Virus genome (UHGV): UHGV-0042415
DNA length: 35,864 bases
Reading direction: 5' to 3' (one strand)
Source of the DNA: a virus
Positions 1,057-11,156 of this stretch are shown here, piece by piece (within the stretch, counting starts at the first letter, position 1; each line of letters opens with the position of its first letter). A program made the position numbers and the translations under genes. Under the pieces are notes generated by a model. It did no database searches. It was not told the origin of the DNA and was given only the letters and a program-made list of their open reading frames with translations.

Positions 1057-1443
1057 TTAAGACTTAATCCATCCCATCATCAACATCAGAGATACCGCCG
1101 TATTAGAAACAGACTGATTTTGATATACTTTTCTATTCTTTTTTTTATCTGCGAAAGGCTCAAAGGCCATATCAAGTTGTTTAGTCAATTCCTCTGCCAA
1201 CAATTTGAGGTCATCCATATTTTTAACTTGTGTAGACAATTCTGGTGTAAGTCTTCCTTGATTATAAAGTACAGCTATAAAGTCAGCCGAGGTAGCCAAT
1301 TTGTTTTTATAAGATGCCTTTTGCCACTCAAGGGCGTTTGCCTTATGTAATGTTCCACCTTCATACCATTCAGAGGCATACCCATGAGATGCAAAAACAA
1401 ACAAGATATAAAAAAGGACTAATTTTAAATAATTACGCTGCAT
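1057..1443 (-). CDS. Exported protein of unknown function (cargo)
   Basis: 128 aa; N-terminal signal-peptide-like MQRNYLKLVLFYILFVFASHGYA; visibly AT-rich; 5 bp from int. Confidence 0.65.
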   Translation of the reverse strand: MQRNYLKLVLFYILFVFASHGYASEWYEGGTLHKANALEWQKASYKNKLATSADFIAVLYNQGRLTPELSTQVKNMDDLKLLAEELTKQLDMAFEPFADKKKNRKVYQNQSVSNTAVSLMLMMGWIKS

Positions 1444-1474
1444 ATCATATTTCCTTGCATGTTATTTAACGTAT

Positions 1475-2122
1475 TTACACAAAATAAATTAAAAATGTAA
1501 TCACCATACCCAAAATGAGTCCAACAATGAACACAATCAAAAATTCTTTAGTATATTCTGTTAATAGTTCACTAATGCAGTGTCTATTTTTAATATTGCC
1601 ATTGCTCTGAGATATATTTTTATTAGTCTGCTGATCTAACCACGACAATGCAGATTGCAACTGAGAACGAGTAAGATCGTTTAAACGGCCTGTACCGAAA
1701 TTGATATGGCAATATCGAAGAAGTTTTTGTCTAATTTCATTACTTTCACTGTTGCGAAGAAGGAGGCTTACAAGTAATTTACAGGCGTCATGATCCTTGT
1801 GTCGGTCAAGCATCGCATTGAGAAAGCTAATTGCGGTTGGATACTGATTCACCGTCATCTTATCGACACTATCAACACCGATTTCAGCATGAAGTTTACG
1901 CCAAACAACAAACGATTCTTCCTTGCTGGCATCAACAATCTTGTCAACCAACAACTTCAGTTGATGTCGCTGAGCCTTAACTAATGGGCGCTCATCAGGC
2001 CTACCAGAAGGGATTGCAATATTGACTGTATGCCGATCATCATATCGCTCTATCTGAATATTCTTTTCGTGGTAATCACGCCCAGCAACGCGATTGTCTG
2101 AACCGTTTGAGTTGACCGCCAT
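1475..2122 (-). CDS. Tail-anchored membrane protein of unknown function (cargo)
   Basis: 215 aa; single C-terminal hydrophobic segment EFLIVFIVGLILGMVITFLIYFV, remainder soluble; AT-rich; starts 18 bp after the repressor stop on the same strand. Confidence 0.7.
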   Translation of the reverse strand: MAVNSNGSDNRVAGRDYHEKNIQIERYDDRHTVNIAIPSGRPDERPLVKAQRHQLKLLVDKIVDASKEESFVVWRKLHAEIGVDSVDKMTVNQYPTAISFLNAMLDRHKDHDACKLLVSLLLRNSESNEIRQKLLRYCHINFGTGRLNDLTRSQLQSALSWLDQQTNKNISQSNGNIKNRHCISELLTEYTKEFLIVFIVGLILGMVITFLIYFV

Positions 2123-2140
2123 GTCACCTCCCTGCTAGAG

Positions 2141-2554
2141 CTAACCCTTAGTTTCGTTATAGTCACGACCAGCAATACGATGGCCCTTGCCAGAAGCTCT
2201 TATTGTACCTGGAGCCAAACTACCAGCGGTCAAGGCTGCCAAAGCCGCCGCCTTAACAGCCAAAGGTGCAGAGCGATATATTTTAATTAGCTCAATCTCA
2301 TCTTCAGTGGCATTAGGGATGCCATGTGCACGACTACCAGAAAGTATGTAATAGACATCTACTCCGCAGCGCCTTCCCAAGAGATTCAGCATAGCTGCAT
2401 CCGGTGTAGTCACCCCTCTTTCATACTTCCCCCAAGTCTTTGTAGAAACTTCAAAAATAGACGCCATATCATCCTGAGTCATGCCAGTTTTCTCTCGTTC
2501 CTCCCGTAATCGACGTCCAATAATGACACTTAATTCCTCTTTTTCTGTTGACAT
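2141..2554 (-). CDS. HTH (XRE/Cro-C1 type) immunity repressor
   Basis: 137 aa; N-terminal HTH region LSVIIGRRLREEREKTGMTQDDMASIFEVSTKTWGKYERG; divergent from the early operon; same orientation as int as in P2 C-int. Confidence 0.8.
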   Translation of the reverse strand: MSTEKEELSVIIGRRLREEREKTGMTQDDMASIFEVSTKTWGKYERGVTTPDAAMLNLLGRRCGVDVYYILSGSRAHGIPNATEDEIELIKIYRSAPLAVKAAALAALTAGSLAPGTIRASGKGHRIAGRDYNETKG

Positions 2555-4910: not shown

Positions 4911-5114
4911 ATGAACAAAAAGACCTGGTTTCGCGCATACATGTGGGCGCTGGTATGCGTCCTCGTTTCTCTCATTCTGTATGCAGGACTACTCCCCCGA
5001 ATGATTTCATCAGACAGCTCCTTCTTGGTATTGCTGGGCATTTTCATTGCCATGCTGTACCCGGCAGGCGTTGTTCGCCTTTTCAGTAAGTACATCAAGG
5101 AAATCAAACAATGA
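4911..5114 (+). CDS. Small two-TM membrane protein, likely partner of the downstream SPFH protein
   Basis: 67 aa; two hydrophobic segments (WALVCVLVSLILYAGLL, FLVLLGIFIAMLYPAGVV); stop overlaps the SPFH gene start (ATGA). Confidence 0.6.
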   Translation: MNKKTWFRAYMWALVCVLVSLILYAGLLPRMISSDSSFLVLLGIFIAMLYPAGVVRLFSKYIKEIKQ

Positions 5115-5941
5115 AGAAACTCAAACTCTTTCAGATTATCCCGCTTTTTGCCGCCATCCTGCTGGTTGGTTGCGATCGCGTTGAGCCAGGTAATGTGGGC
5201 ATCAAAGTCAACAAACTGGGCGACGACAAAGGCGTCGGTGAAGTGGTTGGCGTTGGCCGCTACTGGACAGGCTGGAATACAGAGGTTTACATCTTCCCGA
5301 CCTTCAAACAAATGAAGACCTACGATGAGCCGTTCAGCTTTCAGATGAGTGACGGCACAACCATCGGCTATCACATCGGTGTGGCCTACAAGGTTGATCC
5401 ATCCAAAGTTACTACAGTGTTTCAGACCTACCGCAAAGGCGTGGACGACATTACCGACACTGACCTGCGCCAGAAGATCGCCGATGCACTCAACCGACTG
5501 GCCAGCAAAATGACCACCGATAAATTCATCGACGGTGGCAAGTCTGAACTGCTGGATTCAGCACTTAAAGATATTCAGGAAGAGATGACCCCCATCGGTA
5601 TTCAGGTCATGAGCCTCTCTTATGTCGGTAAACCGGAATATCCGCCAACCGTTATCGACAGCATTAACGCCAAAGTCACGGCAAACCAGAAAACCCTGCA
5701 ACGCGAACAGGAAGTCAAGCAACGCGAAGCAGAAGCCAACATGTTGCGCGCAGAAGCTGCCGGACAGGCTGATGCCATTCGCACAAAAGCCCAGGCTGAA
5801 GCCGACGCCATTCGTTTACGCGGTGAAGCTCTGCGCCAGAATCCCGGCGTTATGGAGCTGGAAGCAATCAACAAATGGAACGGCACGCTGCCGCAATACA
5901 TGACCAGCAATACCGCTGTTCCGTTTGTTCCGGTGAAGTAA
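5111..5941 (+). CDS. SPFH/band-7 (prohibitin/HflC-like) domain lipoprotein
   Basis: 276 aa; lipoprotein signal with lipobox LLVGC; SPFH-like core followed by an A/E/Q-rich coiled-coil tail (QREQEVKQREAEANMLRAEAAGQADAIRTKAQAEADAIRLRGEAL). Confidence 0.7.
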   Translation: MKKLKLFQIIPLFAAILLVGCDRVEPGNVGIKVNKLGDDKGVGEVVGVGRYWTGWNTEVYIFPTFKQMKTYDEPFSFQMSDGTTIGYHIGVAYKVDPSKVTTVFQTYRKGVDDITDTDLRQKIADALNRLASKMTTDKFIDGGKSELLDSALKDIQEEMTPIGIQVMSLSYVGKPEYPPTVIDSINAKVTANQKTLQREQEVKQREAEANMLRAEAAGQADAIRTKAQAEADAIRLRGEALRQNPGVMELEAINKWNGTLPQYMTSNTAVPFVPVK

Positions 5942-5947
5942 TTAAAC

Positions 5948-5991
5948 CCGGCCAGTGAAAATCGCTGGCCGGAGCAGTATCAGGATTTTTT
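5948..5991 (+). terminator. Hairpin plus T-run downstream of the SPFH gene (putative terminator)
   Basis: ccggccag-tgaaaatcg-ctggccgg perfect 8 bp stem, T6 run 14 nt downstream. Confidence 0.4.
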
Positions 5992-6308
5992 AGTATGCCG
6001 TTCTCACAAAAAAACCGCTTGCCATGCCGCAATCAGTCAGGTTACATTTCCGCTGCACCTCATAAAACGGGTGCCGGGATTGGAACCCCGCAGACTAACA
6101 GAGCGCACAACCGCGCCAGCGGTTTTTTTGTGCGTACCGTATCGCCACGTCTTTTTCGCGTCAAAATTATGGTGGGGCGTACAGGGCCAGCATCAGCTGG
6201 GCCGGGTCCTCTGTTAGCCGGTAGTTCCAACCCTGTACGTCTCACCACCCCGAGCTTGGAACCTCTGGATGGTGAGTTTTCAAAACTGACTAACAGAGAG
6301 GCCACACC

Positions 6309-6536
6309 ATGGCAAACCGCAAACAGCGCGCATACGCTGCGCGTCGTCACATCCAGACTGAAATCGACCGCAGACTTTCCCGCGCATTCCGCGTCGCTAA
6401 AATCATGCACATCAACATGCTGCATGAGCGTAGCTGCGAACTTTCAAACCTCTACTCATCCGCTGTTTTCAGCTATCTGGCGGATGATCTGCGCGAGCTT
6501 CAACAGCTCATCCAGCAGCAAAACAAACTCCATTAA
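6309..6536 (+). CDS. Hypothetical small basic protein
   Basis: 75 aa; SD gagagg upstream; preferred over the overlapping low-complexity 205 aa ORF. Confidence 0.5.
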   Translation: MANRKQRAYAARRHIQTEIDRRLSRAFRVAKIMHINMLHERSCELSNLYSSAVFSYLADDLRELQQLIQQQNKLH

Positions 6537-6608
6537 TTCCTGTTCCGGGCCTTTCCTGCACCTTGCGGCGGGAGGCCTTCGCACATCTGTAACAAGAGGA
6601 TTGCCGCA

Positions 6609-6974
6609 ATGATTCTCGCCAACGACTTTCTTGAATACCTGCTCAACACAGAACGTGATCTTGCCGCTCGCGTGCGTGATCGTTATGACATGTACCTGAA
6701 ATCCCTGCCTGTACCGCAACTCGCTGACGGAAAAATTGTTATTGATGGTCGCTACATGATTGACAGCCACGAGGGAAATTACAGGCTTTACCGCATTGAA
6801 GGTGGCACCCCGTCCGTTATTGGCATTTACCAGCGCCCATCCTCTGCAATCGTCGATGTGATTGCCGACAGCATCCGCATCACACATCGCCATGCCGACA
6901 CAGAAGACACCGTGCTGGAAATTCAGCGGCTGGCTGCCGTCTGCCGCGACACCCTGAATGGCATGACGAAGTAA
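6609..6974 (+). CDS. Hypothetical protein immediately upstream of gpA
   Basis: 121 aa; SD aagagga upstream. Confidence 0.6.
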   Translation: MILANDFLEYLLNTERDLAARVRDRYDMYLKSLPVPQLADGKIVIDGRYMIDSHEGNYRLYRIEGGTPSVIGIYQRPSSAIVDVIADSIRITHRHADTEDTVLEIQRLAAVCRDTLNGMTK

Positions 6975-6980
6975 ATCACT

Positions 6981-9779
6981 ATGACGGCAGAGTACATCAG
7001 GGACTGGCAACAGCCGCGCCACGCAGTGGGACGTGAAGGAACGGGGATCCCCGTTCCTGAATCCGCGCTTTCCTCCTGGCTGGATGCCTACCGGGCAGAG
7101 AACGAGCGCCGCCAGGAAATGGCTGATGCGGCGTTCTCCGCCACGCCGCTGGGCAACCTGATTAATAAAAGCCTGGATGCACAGGAAAAACAGGACAAAA
7201 CCATCACACTGGCAGGAGACGCCAGAAAACAGGTACGCGGTGCGGTGGATGAAGCCATGGCCTCGCTGCGCCTGCTGCCGTCCTATCTGCGCGATCCGCT
7301 TATTCGCCACCTCTCCTTCCTGCGCAAAAAACAGGAAGCCGATCGCCGGAAAGGCAAAAAGAGCTGGCAGGCTGAACGCTACGCGCGCGGAACCCTGCGC
7401 AAAATATTCGAACGTCTGGACCGCACCGACCACCGCTGGCTGACACCGGGTTATCGCTCCCTTGCCGGACGCGAACGCCTGGATGATTTGCTTTACCTGC
7501 CGCAGCTCAACAAGCACCAGATACAGACGCTGGCCACCATGACGGCGGCGATGTTCAGCAGCACCTTCGAAAAACTCTGCGATGGCTTTGGCGCGACTGA
7601 TGGCGAGCTGACCATGGAGGTAACGCTGAAGGCGTATCAGATGCTGGCCCGCATGGCGTTACACCTGCACGCCATGCCTCCGCATTATGACGCACTGACA
7701 ACAGACAAAGACCGGAGGAACGAACCGGACACGGAGTTGCTGCCGGGCGCAATCCTTCGCCTGACCTGTGCGGAATGGTGGAAACGCAAACTGTGGCTGT
7801 TACGTTGCGAGTGGCGGGAAGAACAACTCCGCGCCGCCTGTCTGGTTTCCAGAAAAACATCGCCCTATCTGAGCCAGGACGCGTTAAGCGAGTTTCGCGC
7901 ACAGCGCGAGAAAACACGCGATTTCCTGAAAAGTTTCATGCTGGAAAACGAAGACGGGTTCACGATTGATCTCGAGACGGTGTATTACGCGGGAGTAAGT
8001 AATCCGGTTCATCGTAAGGCAGAAATGATGGCCACCATGAAGGGGCTGGAACTTCTGGCCGAAGCCCGTGGCGACAAAGCGGTGTTTCTGACTGTCACCT
8101 GCCCGTCAAAATACCACGCCACAACAGAGAACGGTCATCCGAATCCCAAATGGAACGGGGCCACCATGCGCGACTCCAGCGATTACCTGGTTAACACGTT
8201 TTTTGCGGCGGTCCGCAAGAAACTGAACCGCGACGGCCTGCGCTGGTATGGCATCCGCACGGTGGAGCCTCACCATGACGGCACCGTGCACTGGCATATG
8301 ATGGTCTTTGCTCATCCGGAAGAAATCGACACCATTGTGTCCCACACCCGCGATATTGCCATTCAGGAAGATCGTCACGAGCTGGGTGATGATATTACCC
8401 CACGCTTTAAGGCGGAGTACGTCGACGGCTCAAAAGGCACACCGACCAGCTACATCGCCACCTACATCGGGAAAAACCTGGACAGCCGTGCCGTGGATGG
8501 CATCGACCCGAAAACGGGCAAGCCACGCGTTGACCACGAAACCGGAAAATCAATGGCCGAGAGCGTGGAACGCGCCATCGGCTGGGCGCGCCTTCACCGG
8601 GTCCGCCAGTTCCAGTTCTTTGGTATCCCCTCCCGTCAGGTGTGGCGTGAACTGCGCCGCCTTGCCAGCCAGATGGCTCGCAACCCGGAAGGACCGCAAC
8701 GGCTGAAGGATGACGCAATGGACGCGGTTCTTGCTTCCGCTGATGCCGGATGTTTTGCCACCTACATAGAGAAACAGGGCGGCGTACTTGTTCCACGCAA
8801 GGACTACCTGATTCGCACCGCCTACGACCTCGCAGATGAGCTGAACGATTACGGTGAACAGAGCGTACAGATTTACGGGATCTGGTCACCGCTCATCGGG
8901 GAGTCTTCCCGCGTATGCACGCATCCGGACAACTGGAAGCTGGTAAGACGCAAACCGGAAGCGGAAGACAGCGCCCGCGAAAATGGTTTTGACCTTCAGG
9001 GCGGCCCTGCCGCCCCTTGGACTCGTGGCAATAACTGTCCCCGTGTACAGGAAACGGACAACAACGGGACAGAACAGCCGGAAGAACGGCCAGCACCGTG
9101 GCCGCAGCTTCCTGACGGCGTTGACGTGAATGAATGGATGCGCTCACTGAAACGGCACGAACGCCGGGCGCTGATGCGTTCGCTGCGTGACAAACAGGCA
9201 AAAAACAGCAGTGATGAAATGCAGAACTGGACACAGAGCCGCAAACAGCCACAGCCTTTGCCTGATAACCACGAGTTACTCGCTAAAGAATGGCGGGAGT
9301 CTGCTGAATCTCTCGGCCTGCATATCGGTGAACAGCAGGTGCAGCACCTGTTACGGGGCGGCAGTCTGTACGTTGACGGCAGCATCATTGCACCGCAGGG
9401 ATTTGAAATTGTACGCAAACCGGATACCCGCCAGGACAGCCGAATCACGCAGCTCTGGCAACGCCTGAGCCGTAATCACGGCGTAAGCAGCACGGAGATC
9501 CGCCATAACCCGGTCGCCAGCTATCTGGAACAGCTGGGGGCATCAGACCCTGAAGCCGCCGCACGCCTGGCATCCACACTTCAGCAGGACCAGAACACCA
9601 TGAAAACACCCGTTACCGTGCTTTCTGACATGCTGCGCGCCATCCGCGACGCAGAGCACGCACAGAGAATCAGTGAAACCACTGAACGCGCCCGCCGCAA
9701 AGCAGACCTGCTGCGGGGTGGCCTGACCAGTGGAAACAAAAAAACAGACAGAAACGGGACTCACAAATCCCGTAAATGA
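6981..9779 (+). CDS. A: Rolling-circle replication initiator (P2 gpA-like endonuclease)
   Basis: 932 aa; HUH-type motif VHWHMMVF and paired catalytic tyrosines YIATYIGK as in P2 A-family initiators; long Q/R/E-rich C-terminal extension. Confidence 0.88.
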   Translation: MTAEYIRDWQQPRHAVGREGTGIPVPESALSSWLDAYRAENERRQEMADAAFSATPLGNLINKSLDAQEKQDKTITLAGDARKQVRGAVDEAMASLRLLPSYLRDPLIRHLSFLRKKQEADRRKGKKSWQAERYARGTLRKIFERLDRTDHRWLTPGYRSLAGRERLDDLLYLPQLNKHQIQTLATMTAAMFSSTFEKLCDGFGATDGELTMEVTLKAYQMLARMALHLHAMPPHYDALTTDKDRRNEPDTELLPGAILRLTCAEWWKRKLWLLRCEWREEQLRAACLVSRKTSPYLSQDALSEFRAQREKTRDFLKSFMLENEDGFTIDLETVYYAGVSNPVHRKAEMMATMKGLELLAEARGDKAVFLTVTCPSKYHATTENGHPNPKWNGATMRDSSDYLVNTFFAAVRKKLNRDGLRWYGIRTVEPHHDGTVHWHMMVFAHPEEIDTIVSHTRDIAIQEDRHELGDDITPRFKAEYVDGSKGTPTSYIATYIGKNLDSRAVDGIDPKTGKPRVDHETGKSMAESVERAIGWARLHRVRQFQFFGIPSRQVWRELRRLASQMARNPEGPQRLKDDAMDAVLASADAGCFATYIEKQGGVLVPRKDYLIRTAYDLADELNDYGEQSVQIYGIWSPLIGESSRVCTHPDNWKLVRRKPEAEDSARENGFDLQGGPAAPWTRGNNCPRVQETDNNGTEQPEERPAPWPQLPDGVDVNEWMRSLKRHERRALMRSLRDKQAKNSSDEMQNWTQSRKQPQPLPDNHELLAKEWRESAESLGLHIGEQQVQHLLRGGSLYVDGSIIAPQGFEIVRKPDTRQDSRITQLWQRLSRNHGVSSTEIRHNPVASYLEQLGASDPEAAARLASTLQQDQNTMKTPVTVLSDMLRAIRDAEHAQRISETTERARRKADLLRGGLTSGNKKTDRNGTHKSRK

Positions 9780-9880: not shown

Positions 9881-10840
9881 ATGAAAATTTGTATCGACGA
9901 CGGCTCCACCAACATCAAGCTGGCATGGACTGAGAACGGCGAACGCCGCAACGCCATCAGCCCGAACAGCTTCAAGTCGGAATGGTCTGCGCCGTTCGGT
10001 GGCACGCAGCCCGCGAACTACATGCTTGATGGCGTGCGCTATGGTTTTGATCCGGTCAGCGATCGCTTTGTCCAGACGACCGACACGCAATACCAGTACA
10101 GCGATGTGAATATAATTGCCATTCATCACGCGCTGGTCAAATCAGGCATCACACCACAGGAAGTGGATGTGGTTGTCACCCTGCCACTGAGCGAGTATTT
10201 CGATACAAACGCACAGCCGGACATGGCCAACATCAACCGCAAAAAAGCGAACGTCATGCGCCCGGTGGAGTACCAGAACGGCGAAGCATTCACTATCCGT
10301 AACGTACGGGTTATGCCTGAATCCATTCCGGCTGGCTTTAAGGCACTGGCTGACATGAGTCCGTTTGAATCCCTGCTGATTGTGGATTTGGGCGGAACCA
10401 CGCTGGATGTGGCAAAGGTTCAGGGGCAACTGGCAGGTATCAGCCAGGTGTTTTGCGATCCACACGTGGGCGTTTCTCTGATGGCCGATGCCGTACTGTC
10501 GGTGATGGCCACTAACGGTATGCGCACCAGTCACCACATCGCCAATACCATTATCGAACATCGCCATGATGAAGCCTGGCTGCGCCAGCACATCCACAAT
10601 GACGCGCATTACGCCAGCCTGATGGCGGTAATTCGTGAAAAGGAAGAAACACTGAAACAACGCGTGATCCGCGCGCTGGCGGGTTTTTCGGGTTACGGGC
10701 GGGTGATGGTTGTCGGTGGAGGGGCGGAGATTGTGGCACCCGCTATCCGCGAAGCCTGCGGAGTTAATGCGACTTTCATCGCGGACGGGGTGCCACAGTT
10801 TGCTCTGGTTAATGGGCTGTACGCAATGGACAAGGAGTAA
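9881..10840 (+). CDS. parM: ParM/StbA-like actin-fold segregation ATPase
   Basis: 319 aa; N-terminus MKICIDDGSTNIKLAW closely matches plasmid R1 ParM (MLVFIDDGSTNIKLQW); phosphate-2 motif LIVDLGGTTLDVA; same length as ParM. Confidence 0.85.
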   Translation: MKICIDDGSTNIKLAWTENGERRNAISPNSFKSEWSAPFGGTQPANYMLDGVRYGFDPVSDRFVQTTDTQYQYSDVNIIAIHHALVKSGITPQEVDVVVTLPLSEYFDTNAQPDMANINRKKANVMRPVEYQNGEAFTIRNVRVMPESIPAGFKALADMSPFESLLIVDLGGTTLDVAKVQGQLAGISQVFCDPHVGVSLMADAVLSVMATNGMRTSHHIANTIIEHRHDEAWLRQHIHNDAHYASLMAVIREKEETLKQRVIRALAGFSGYGRVMVVGGGAEIVAPAIREACGVNATFIADGVPQFALVNGLYAMDKE

Positions 10841-10844
10841 ACCA

Positions 10845-11156
10845 ATGACGACTCCAACCAGACGGATAAGTTTCTATCTGAAGCCCACCGCCGTCAAGAA
10901 CGAAGGAGAAGCATGCGCCTGGCTGGACAGCCTTACACCAGAAGCCCGCAAAAGCGGCCAACGCGTGGCTTTTCTGGCCGGGCTGGCACTTCTGAAAATG
11001 AATCCGGCAGAGGCTTATCGACTGGCTGCATGGGCTGGTGATGAAGCGTTATCAGTGACACAAACCAGGACAGAACGCCCCGCATCACAGCCAGTATCAA
11101 CCGCACAGATAACCAGTCAGATGGCCGGAAATATCCGGGCGTTATTTCCTGAATAA
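10845..11156 (+). CDS. parR: ParR-like small DNA-binding adaptor protein
   Basis: 103 aa from the ATG at 10845 with SD aggag; RRISFYLKP...AFLAGLALLKMNP...IRALFPE resembles R1 ParR (RTIAFKLNP...AALTAGLALY...LRSLFPKE); directly follows parM. Confidence 0.65.
   Translation: MTTPTRRISFYLKPTAVKNEGEACAWLDSLTPEARKSGQRVAFLAGLALLKMNPAEAYRLAAWAGDEALSVTQTRTERPASQPVSTAQITSQMAGNIRALFPE

Follow-up and report, generated by a model that had tools for sequence, protein, structure and literature searches.

The question raised by this locus is what occupies the ~360 bp between an SPFH gene (5111–5941) and the ATG at 6309 of the following ORF in the virus genome UHGV-0042415. The window, i.e. the whole stretch of 35,864 nucleotides that was analysed, is spanned by a complete P2-family prophage encoding an integrase, a portal protein, a terminase, a GPO scaffold, a P2-type capsid, a sheath, and a tape measure protein. 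The prophage repressor is a 137-aa HTH protein (2141–2554). Outside the immunity region, the identity of the window with phage P88 (Xuanwuvirus) amounts to 96.4% across 79% of the first 25 kb. Judged from these sequence data, the window is a P88-like P2-family prophage of the helper type, which carries head and tail genes and is not a satellite. The segment from 5990 to 6540 is 100% identical to four mouse E. coli chromosomes, in which the prophage adjoins yecA. The region in question interrupts the early operon, which runs from the cox side through genes for wHTH, Ead, and SPFH proteins and continues beyond the region with a 75-aa ORF, orf121, gpA, and ParM.

A preliminary description of this DNA had presented the region as a single structured, non-coding element with nested inverted repeats and a three-copy 9-mer, and had proposed that it is an sRNA, an attenuator, or an iteron-type operator. 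All of the elements listed there are present, and their coordinates agree with ours to within 1 nt. The analysis reported here indicates that the region is very probably an IsrK–C4 antisense-RNA immunity module, as in P1/P7 immI and P4 seqA–CI–seqC. No account of such a module for P88 or Xuanwuvirus was found in the literature that was searched. Of the complete E. coli genomes examined (n = 5426), 1243 carry DNA resembling the module plus the gene that follows it.

IsrK- and C4-type RNAs and their matching sites

An Rfam scan of the whole window, which had been suggested as a check, returned only two matches, isrK and C4, both inside the region, both full length, and both above the gathering score; a tRNA/tmRNA scan found none. 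The proposal of an sRNA or attenuator is thus supported and the RNA structure is real, but what had been taken for one structured region consists of two RNA genes, namely an IsrK-like gene with its own promoter and terminator and a C4-like gene. The RNAs, their sites, the signals, and the downstream genes described below are all on the + strand.

The IsrK-like small RNA (6055–6129; Rfam RF01394, 72.4 bits, gathering score 50, model positions 1–77 of 77) is the equivalent of P4 seqA and of the P1 a1–b1 leader. The P1-type c4-a1b1 Rfam model scores 20 bits on this upstream element, below the threshold of 46.7. The predicted fold comprises hairpin 1 (6055–6074) and hairpin 2 (6075–6090), the latter displaying in its loop site a1 (TTGGAAC, 6080–6086), which is complementary to site a' of the C4-like RNA, followed by a single-stranded linker that contains site b1 (CTAACAGAG, 6095–6103), complementary to site b'. 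The 3' end is formed by an intrinsic terminator (6109–6124 plus T7, to 6129). Upstream, a promoter-like site, TTGCCA-18-TACATT (6019–6048), is the only sigma-70-like site between 5800 and 6700; it lies just upstream of isrK model position 1, places the predicted start at ~6055, and has one variable position in 36 among P88-like relatives. By consensus matches, the RNA therefore has its own promoter and intrinsic terminator and is located directly upstream of a C4-family RNA. The distance between the two RNAs is 20–45 nt in the window and 13 other phage loci, and ~110 nt in P4. The IsrK fold by itself is thermodynamically unremarkable (z = -1.65).

The C4 antisense RNA match extends from 6165 to 6252 (Rfam RF01695, 78.5 bits, gathering score 45, model positions 1–87 of 87). 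Alignment with the annotated 77-nt c4 RNA of P1, the 5' end of which is reportedly made by RNase P processing, predicts a mature C4-like RNA of 79 nt (6171–6249). In its predicted fold, a closing stem of 16–17 bp encloses two hairpins and leaves a 3' overhang of ACC, which together with the conserved AAUUAU/GG junction is a tRNA-like feature. The closing stem corresponds to the long hairpin that had been noticed previously, with arms now placed at 6171–6186 and 6231–6249 (6230–6248 in the preliminary description). The folding and covariation checks that had been proposed there were both positive: the structure of minimum energy (-46.5 kcal/mol, z = -5.3; none of 200 shuffles was as good) is identical to that of the Rfam consensus, and in an alignment of 16 loci, 16 of the 27 consensus pairs exhibit compensatory double changes. 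Site b' (CTCTGTTAG, 6209–6217) forms the loop of hairpin 2, and site a' (GTTCCAA, 6224–6230) is a single-stranded bulge on the 3' side of this hairpin.

Matching copies of both sites recur in the mRNA that follows. Target site a2 (TTGGAAC, 6256–6262) begins 7 nt past the predicted 3' end of the C4-like RNA, and target site b2 (CTAACAGAG, 6290–6298) overlaps the Shine-Dalgarno sequence GAGAGG (6296–6301), as had been recognized previously; its end is separated by 11 nt from the ATG at 6309. Site b' is perfectly complementary to this ribosome-binding region and a' to a site located 27 nt further upstream, the matches being 9 and 7 nt long, respectively. The three copies of the 9-mer, i.e. two direct copies (6095–6103 and 6290–6298) and one inverted copy (6209–6217), are exactly those that had been reported and are the only ones in the 35.8-kb window, in which 0.16 copies are expected by chance; none of 100 shuffles reached three. 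The 7-mer is likewise restricted to 6080–6086, 6256–6262, and, in inverted orientation, 6224–6230; its copy number in the window is unremarkable (5.4 expected), and it is the clustering and arrangement of the copies that are unusual.

Two further structures were observed that lie outside the Rfam models. In the read-through RNA, the terminator stem extends across the U-tract, with 6103–6109 pairing with 6129–6135; this extension covaries, being represented by at least five stem sequences among 15 isrK-bearing loci, and is weak in F1055. In addition, the 3' strand of the stem that closes C4 (6241–6247) can alternatively pair with 6270–6276, giving a hairpin whose 8-nt loop shows a2. This hairpin folds in one version or another in 16/16 loci, with six stem variants; that of P1 is shorter and has a different apical loop. 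On the basis of these folds, the extended terminator stem and the alternative a2 hairpin may govern processing and target presentation.

The preliminary description had also counted among the nested repeats an A7CCGC element (6008–6018) complementary to GCGGT7 (6119–6129). This complementarity is real, but the repeat is situated outside the RNA fold of the module. The two elements form part of a 15-nt perfect inverted repeat, of which the left arm is CACAAAAAAACCGCT (6005–6019) and the right arm (6118–6132) coincides with the 3' half and U-tract of the IsrK intrinsic terminator. The left arm is upstream of the promoter-like site and hence outside the short RNA; its A7 tract is at about -47 to -41, which we take to be the position of the proximal UP-element subsite. 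The fold of 5990–6145 includes the A7/T7 pairing in its minimum-energy structure. Among four P88-like loci that were inspected, the repeat is conserved and shows no variation, and ten further modules (lambdoid, Uetakevirus-type, and P1-like RCS47) lack it, so that covariation offers no evidence on the A7/T7 helix. The left arm could be UP-element-like or could serve as a long-range terminator partner in transcripts arriving from upstream. An antiterminator, which would compete for the 3' half of a terminator with a 4-nt loop, is kinetically unconvincing. The A7/T7 repeat is separate from the general IsrK–C4 module.

Variation of the sites among phages

The module was compared across 16 loci, i.e. 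the window, 13 further phage loci, P1, and P4. A tandem of isrK and C4 is present in all 13 further phage loci and in P4 (isrK, 8692–8615, corresponding to the seqA region; C4, 8507–8420, corresponding to the CI RNA; both by Rfam), and P1 has a match to the c4-a1b1 model followed by C4. In 16/16 loci, complements of the C4 loop and bulge, either perfect or G.U-compatible, recur both upstream and before the ribosome-binding site of the next gene, and b2 is next to this site in every locus examined. The repeats as such are therefore conserved in related phages as three matching copies of a and b, and their sequences differ: 10 a-alleles and 14 b-alleles were found in the 16 loci, each recurring as a1/a'/a2 or b1/b'/b2. 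Phage P88 itself, for example, has the C4 alleles CAACTACAG and TTTCCAC. In three loci (F004, Ss-VASD, and F1055), b1 is unlike b2, and the change keeps a G.U pair with b'.

The specificity of this matching was quantified using an identical search procedure for own and foreign targets. Among the 16 loci, the mean helix formed with the downstream targets (a2 + b2) was 15.9 nt for own and 8.7 nt for foreign targets, and the corresponding values for the upstream targets (a1 + b1) were 14.6 and 8.3 nt. The best target was the RNA's own in 16/16 rows of both the upstream and the downstream matrix. A scan of IMG/VR with the C4 5' end yielded 110 parsable modules, 55 of them distinct, with three-way matching as in the 16 loci. 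The b' allele of the window was found in 12 IMG/VR contigs, all of which keep all six sites. With respect to cross-talk with P4-like satellites, none of these 12 contigs is P4-like and all 12 are P88-like.

Among P88-like relatives that align with the window without gaps, 45–62% of positions vary in the six sites; the corresponding values for the promoter, the terminator, and the stems of hairpin 2 are only 0–4%. At the level of sequence comparison, this pattern of variation is the signature of a specificity determinant within a conserved scaffold. No consistent association was found between epsilon allele, repressor type, and RNA allele in ~12 loci.

Predicted regulated genes and relationship to known systems

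The first gene downstream of the module (6309–6536) encodes a 75-aa protein that matches Pfam PF25738 'Derepression' with 28.4 bits (cut-off 27). In BLASTP it shares 33% identity with P4 epsilon over 51 aa (E = 6e-9), and the two proteins have reciprocal PHROG matches (3688/10016). The protein is thus homologous to P4 epsilon, a helper derepression protein or anti-repressor; the anti-repressor role is suggested by 33% identity and a Pfam score barely above the cut-off. No similarity to P1 Icd was found, and no Ant gene follows. Next are orf121 (6609–6974), presumably in the same transcription unit, for which no homology to P4 ORF151 or ORF106 was detected, and the gene for the gpA replication endonuclease (6981–9779; Pfam Phage_GPA, E = 1e-131). 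The order C4, epsilon-like gene, gpA was found in all 25 distinct P88-like loci checked, with orf121 intervening in 22, and persists even where gpA is only 51–67% identical.

The similarity to P1/P7 immI is extensive. In the P1 record, the annotated elements are the promoter P1c4 (48195–48223), a1 (48255–48261), b1 (48269–48276), the 77-nt c4 RNA (48343–48419), a2 (48423–48429), b2 (48452–48459), and the icd start (48470). The window presents the six sites in this same order, with 15 nt from a1 to b1 (14 in P1) and, as in P1, 11 nt between the end of b2 and the start codon; C4 of P1 scores 68.8 bits with the Rfam model that gives 78.5 bits in the window. Both systems have two short determinants (7 and 8–9 nt) in a bulge and a loop, the alleles of which differ among related phages (cf. 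P1/P7 heteroimmunity), and in both the regulated product opposes a repressor, a property that the epsilon homology predicts for the window. In contrast to P1, however, the upstream element of the window is isrK with its own terminator rather than of the c4-a1b1 type, the first gene is epsilon-like rather than icd, and gene A is next rather than ant, kilA, or repL. The P1/P7 arrangement of icd in first position coupled to ant1/ant2 is thus not found in the window. P1 is a plasmid prophage, whereas the phage in the window belongs to the P2 family and is integrated.

The immunity region of P4 (PLE–seqA–CI RNA–seqC–epsilon–alpha), which has been referred to as P4's IsrK-C4 system of immunity, with seqA as IsrK and CI as C4 (PMC3632133), shares with the window the isrK and C4 matches in Rfam and the matching a and b sites. 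Downstream of C4 are an epsilon homologue and then a replication gene, and in both cases the module guards entry to the replication operon. The two nevertheless differ in several respects. In P4, an Icd-like ORF directly follows b2 and epsilon begins ~190 nt later, whereas the first gene in the window is epsilon-like; P4 encodes the alpha primase-helicase and the window the rolling-circle endonuclease gpA; and P4 is a satellite, whereas the window is a complete helper-type phage whose orf121 is unrelated to P4 ORFs. Of the gene content of P4-type satellites, epsilon downstream of the CI RNA is therefore present, but instead of alpha within a set of sid, delta, and psu, the window contains Phage_GPA and P2-family structural genes.

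The third related system is that of Salmonella Gifsy-1 (IsrK–STnc1160/orf45–anrP), for which short and read-through forms of IsrK, Hfq binding of these isoforms, and a ~80-nt processed RNA, STnc1160, downstream of IsrK have been described (PMC4825925). The window shares with it the IsrK family, predicted terminated and read-through forms, and the same promoter and terminator layout, and its C4-family RNA matches STnc1160 in position and size. In Gifsy-1, however, the downstream gene is Ant-like and is reached through 'orf45', and the published model is activation by IsrK in trans. Control of an epsilon-like gene and gpA by such a module is without experimental precedent, the first gene being neither icd nor ant and the replication gene not being P4 alpha.

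Mode of action and significance

Family membership, fold, three-way complementarity with its co-variation, and gene context were computed for the window. The scheme that follows, from the transcripts and their processing to the block of translation, polarity, and an immunity phenotype, is inferred from P1/P7, P4, and Gifsy-1 (PMC8198154, PMC12197685, PMC4825925, PMC3632133), with the studies of Citron and Schuster in 1990 and of Biere et al. in 1992 as further background. Transcription would start at ~6055 from the promoter at 6019–6048, and most transcripts would end at the 6109–6129 terminator to give an IsrK RNA of ~75 nt. The read-through RNA would carry the C4 fold (6171–6249), from which RNase P together with trimming at the 3' end would release a stable RNA of ~79 nt, if the analogy to P1 and P4 holds. 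This RNA would pair with the mRNA through b' (6209–6217) and b2 (6290–6298) and through a' (6224–6230) and a2 (6256–6262), preventing 30S binding and hence translation of the 75-aa epsilon-like gene; the untranslated RNA would be terminated by Rho polarity, leaving orf121 and gpA off. Within the lysogen, silencing would operate in cis, and a superinfecting phage with matching a and b alleles would be silenced in trans. Because IsrK bears the identical sites a1 and b1, it may be either a decoy that titrates C4, corresponding to its activator role in Gifsy-1, or an additional target of C4 with feedback on read-through, corresponding to P4 seqA. The roles proposed for IsrK differ between these systems, namely a requirement for establishing immunity in P4 and activation in Gifsy-1.

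A translational block with polarity is the primary mode of action that we favour, with some reservation. C4 blocks ant expression in P1 (PMC8198154, PMC12197685), and the idea in the preliminary description that the inverted copy sequesters the ribosome-binding site of the ORF at 6309 closely approaches the established mechanism of the family, in which the b' loop pairs with b2 over the Shine-Dalgarno sequence. A less probable, though serious, competitor is an action of the P4 type, in which C4 bound to a1/b1 and a2/b2 of the nascent transcript would mainly cause premature termination, enforcing the IsrK terminator and a downstream site, and the overlap with the ribosome-binding site would be secondary. 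P4 has the same isrK and C4 pair with an epsilon homologue downstream, and its CI RNA terminates transcription through seqA and seqC, according to those passages of PMC4825925 that deal with the P4 literature. Moreover, the extended terminator stem (6103–6109/6129–6135) starts with G6103, at which b1 ends, so that C4 binding could affect this stem. Against a primary role for termination, b2 overlaps the Shine-Dalgarno sequence here and is near the ribosome-binding site in every locus examined, with 11 nt to the ATG as in P1; the position of b2 relative to this site is therefore in keeping with a block of translation as the primary effect. Both modes are compatible, as in P1 the block itself gives termination.

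The sequestration suggested in the preliminary description could operate within a single transcript, as a purely cis-acting leader or attenuator in which the inverted copy folds onto the ribosome-binding site, with no diffusible RNA and no immunity. All of the sites are indeed on one transcript, and alternative cis structures have been described for the long isrK transcript of Gifsy-1 (PMC4825925). However, in the minimum-energy folds of both 6165–6312 and 6055–6330, the C4 structure is closed, b' is looped, and no cis pairing of b' with b2 is formed, and the homologues in P1, P4, and Gifsy-1 are excised, stable RNAs (P1 record; PMC4825925). The hypervariable, reassorting a and b alleles are predicted by immunity specificity in trans and are left unexplained by a cis fold, and a purely cis-acting device is accordingly improbable. 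Sequestration by the inverted copy can thus be retained from the earlier proposal, but in the characterised homologues it is exerted by a processed, diffusible RNA and so occurs in trans as well as in cis.

Still less probable is the alternative that the repeats function as DNA, i.e. as iterons or operators that are bound by a phage protein and co-vary with its specificity. Each motif does occur as two direct copies and one inverted copy that co-vary between phages, as protein-binding sites could do. The motifs are, however, always in an unpaired loop or bulge of RNA folds that are supported by covariation, and the few mismatches between targets, including the b1/b2 differences in F004, Ss-VASD, and F1055, are G.U-compatible. 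The two motifs occupy fixed RNA-structural positions in P1, P4, lambdoid, and P2-like phages that have unrelated repressors, replication proteins, and DNA-binding proteins, and the homologues act as RNA by experiment. On these grounds, the iteron or operator reading was rejected.

The least credible reading is a protein-coding one, with the 205-aa ORF at 5995–6612 as the gene. A stop-free frame of ~205–220 codons does cross the RNAs in most P88-like loci, and it has been annotated, in LR595891 as a 'hypothetical protein' and in RefSeq as a pseudo 'ash family protein'. However, neither this ORF nor the antisense 121-aa ORF matches a Pfam or NCBIfam family, the 205-aa frame overlaps the epsilon-like gene in a different reading frame, the frame that is open relative to C4 is not the same in loci with loop indels, substitutions among relatives (76/85/111 by codon position) show no third-position bias and cluster in the six RNA sites, and the equivalent 'cI ORF' is listed in the P4 record as a 137-aa CDS, yet the immunity factor is the CI RNA (PMC4825925). 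The 205-aa ORF, the 'ash family protein' pseudo-CDS, and the antisense ORF were accordingly ruled out, and the earlier view of the region as non-coding is upheld.

The IsrK–C4 module of the window is an unannotated instance of a known regulatory system, the principle of which is unchanged by the finding, and its cargo is slightly new in combining an epsilon-like gene and gpA in a helper-type phage. A segment of ~360 bp is thereby named and given a mechanism, where GenBank and RefSeq leave a blank or mis-annotate it as protein, i.e. as an 'ash family protein', as a 205-aa hypothetical protein, or as N-terminal extensions of 'antirepressor/Rha' genes. A helper-type P2-family phage thus has the same RNA immunity device as the satellite P4 and as P1, placed before an epsilon-type anti-repressor gene and a replication gene. 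At least six b-alleles and five a-alleles exist within phages that are otherwise 95–99% identical, a diversity from which immunity groups determined by RNA are predicted among prophages that are nearly identical in other respects. As a tentative extension, the module may constitute in P88-like phages a second, RNA-encoded layer of immunity that gates their own epsilon-type anti-repressor and gene A replication; freely reassorting hypervariable determinants would then define RNA heteroimmunity groups, the extended terminator stem and the a2 hairpin would tune read-through and target presentation, and the 15-nt repeat would couple the module to transcription from the early promoter.

Predicted pairings in the IsrK- and C4-like RNAs

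The terminator hairpin of the IsrK-like RNA (6109-6124, followed by seven U residues) is predicted to gain approximately 7 bp across the U-tract in read-through RNA, through pairing of 6103-6109 with 6129-6135. The two strands of this extension, GCGCACA and UGUGCGU in the window, covary at other isrK loci (GAUACA/UGUAUC, GACACA/UGUGUC, and GUACAA/UUGUAC); the extension is weak in F1055 (locus L008) and is not included in the Rfam isrK model. In the window the extension starts at G6103, which is also the final base of b1, one of the sites in IsrK.

An alternative hairpin (6241-6276) can be formed by pairing of 6241-6247, in the 3' arm of the closing stem of the C4-like antisense RNA, with 6270-6276, and this hairpin and the C4 fold are mutually exclusive. 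A 3-bp mini-stem within it is predicted to display the mRNA target site a2 (6256-6262) in an 8-nt loop. The hairpin is possible in all 16 loci (the window, 13 phage loci, P1, and P4), with six different stem sequences, and the P1 version is shorter and has a different loop.

Module edge and public annotation

A perfect 15-nt inverted repeat (6005-6019 and 6118-6132) flanks the IsrK promoter and gene. This repeat was found only in P88-like phages, among which it is invariant. It also marks where the conserved module begins on the left; the genes upstream of this edge vary between phages.

The IsrK/C4 DNA is annotated as protein in public records, namely those of three lambdoid phages (L004, L007, and L008) and of loci L003 and L137. 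These annotations include N-terminal extensions of CDSs for an 'antirepressor', 'Rha', or a 'peptidase', which are continuous in frame with the genuine start downstream of the target site b2. Other entries are a pseudo 'ash family protein' and a hypothetical protein of 205 aa. Of all loci retrieved, LC710661 is the only record in which both ncRNAs are annotated.

Variation in the neighbouring genes

The epsilon-like gene (6309-6536; also L001-L003 and L028-L148) is a mosaic hot spot. Its products share 59-93% amino acid identity among P88-like phages, and in the same phages identity is mostly 95-99% for the adjacent orf121 and gpA. Linkage of the epsilon-like allele with the a/b RNA alleles or the repressor type was not found among the P88-like phages compared. 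In E. coli SK6988, one of four E. coli genomes matching 5990-6540 at 100% identity, the gpA replication endonuclease is marked as frameshifted by RefSeq (L136, 7492-10315).

The immunity region (1057-2554, minus strand) differs from that of P88, and P88 homology begins only at approximately 3094. This region contains a candidate repressor (2141-2554, minus strand; 137 aa, HTH_3/HTH_31), and two extra ORFs (215 aa, PHROG 5825, and 128 aa) lie between the repressor and the integrase. An SPFH/Band-7 lipoprotein gene, together with a hairpin of its own, has been inserted (5111-5972; hairpin, 5948-5972) immediately upstream of the module. This gene looks like a moron, because it occurs in a subset of P88-like phages, with 99% conservation among the carriers. 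ParM and plasmid-stability (ParR-like) genes (9881-11156) directly follow gpA in this P2-family prophage. Of 1,440 matching places in E. coli genomes, 47 lie on plasmids, suggesting a plasmid-prophage lifestyle for some relatives.
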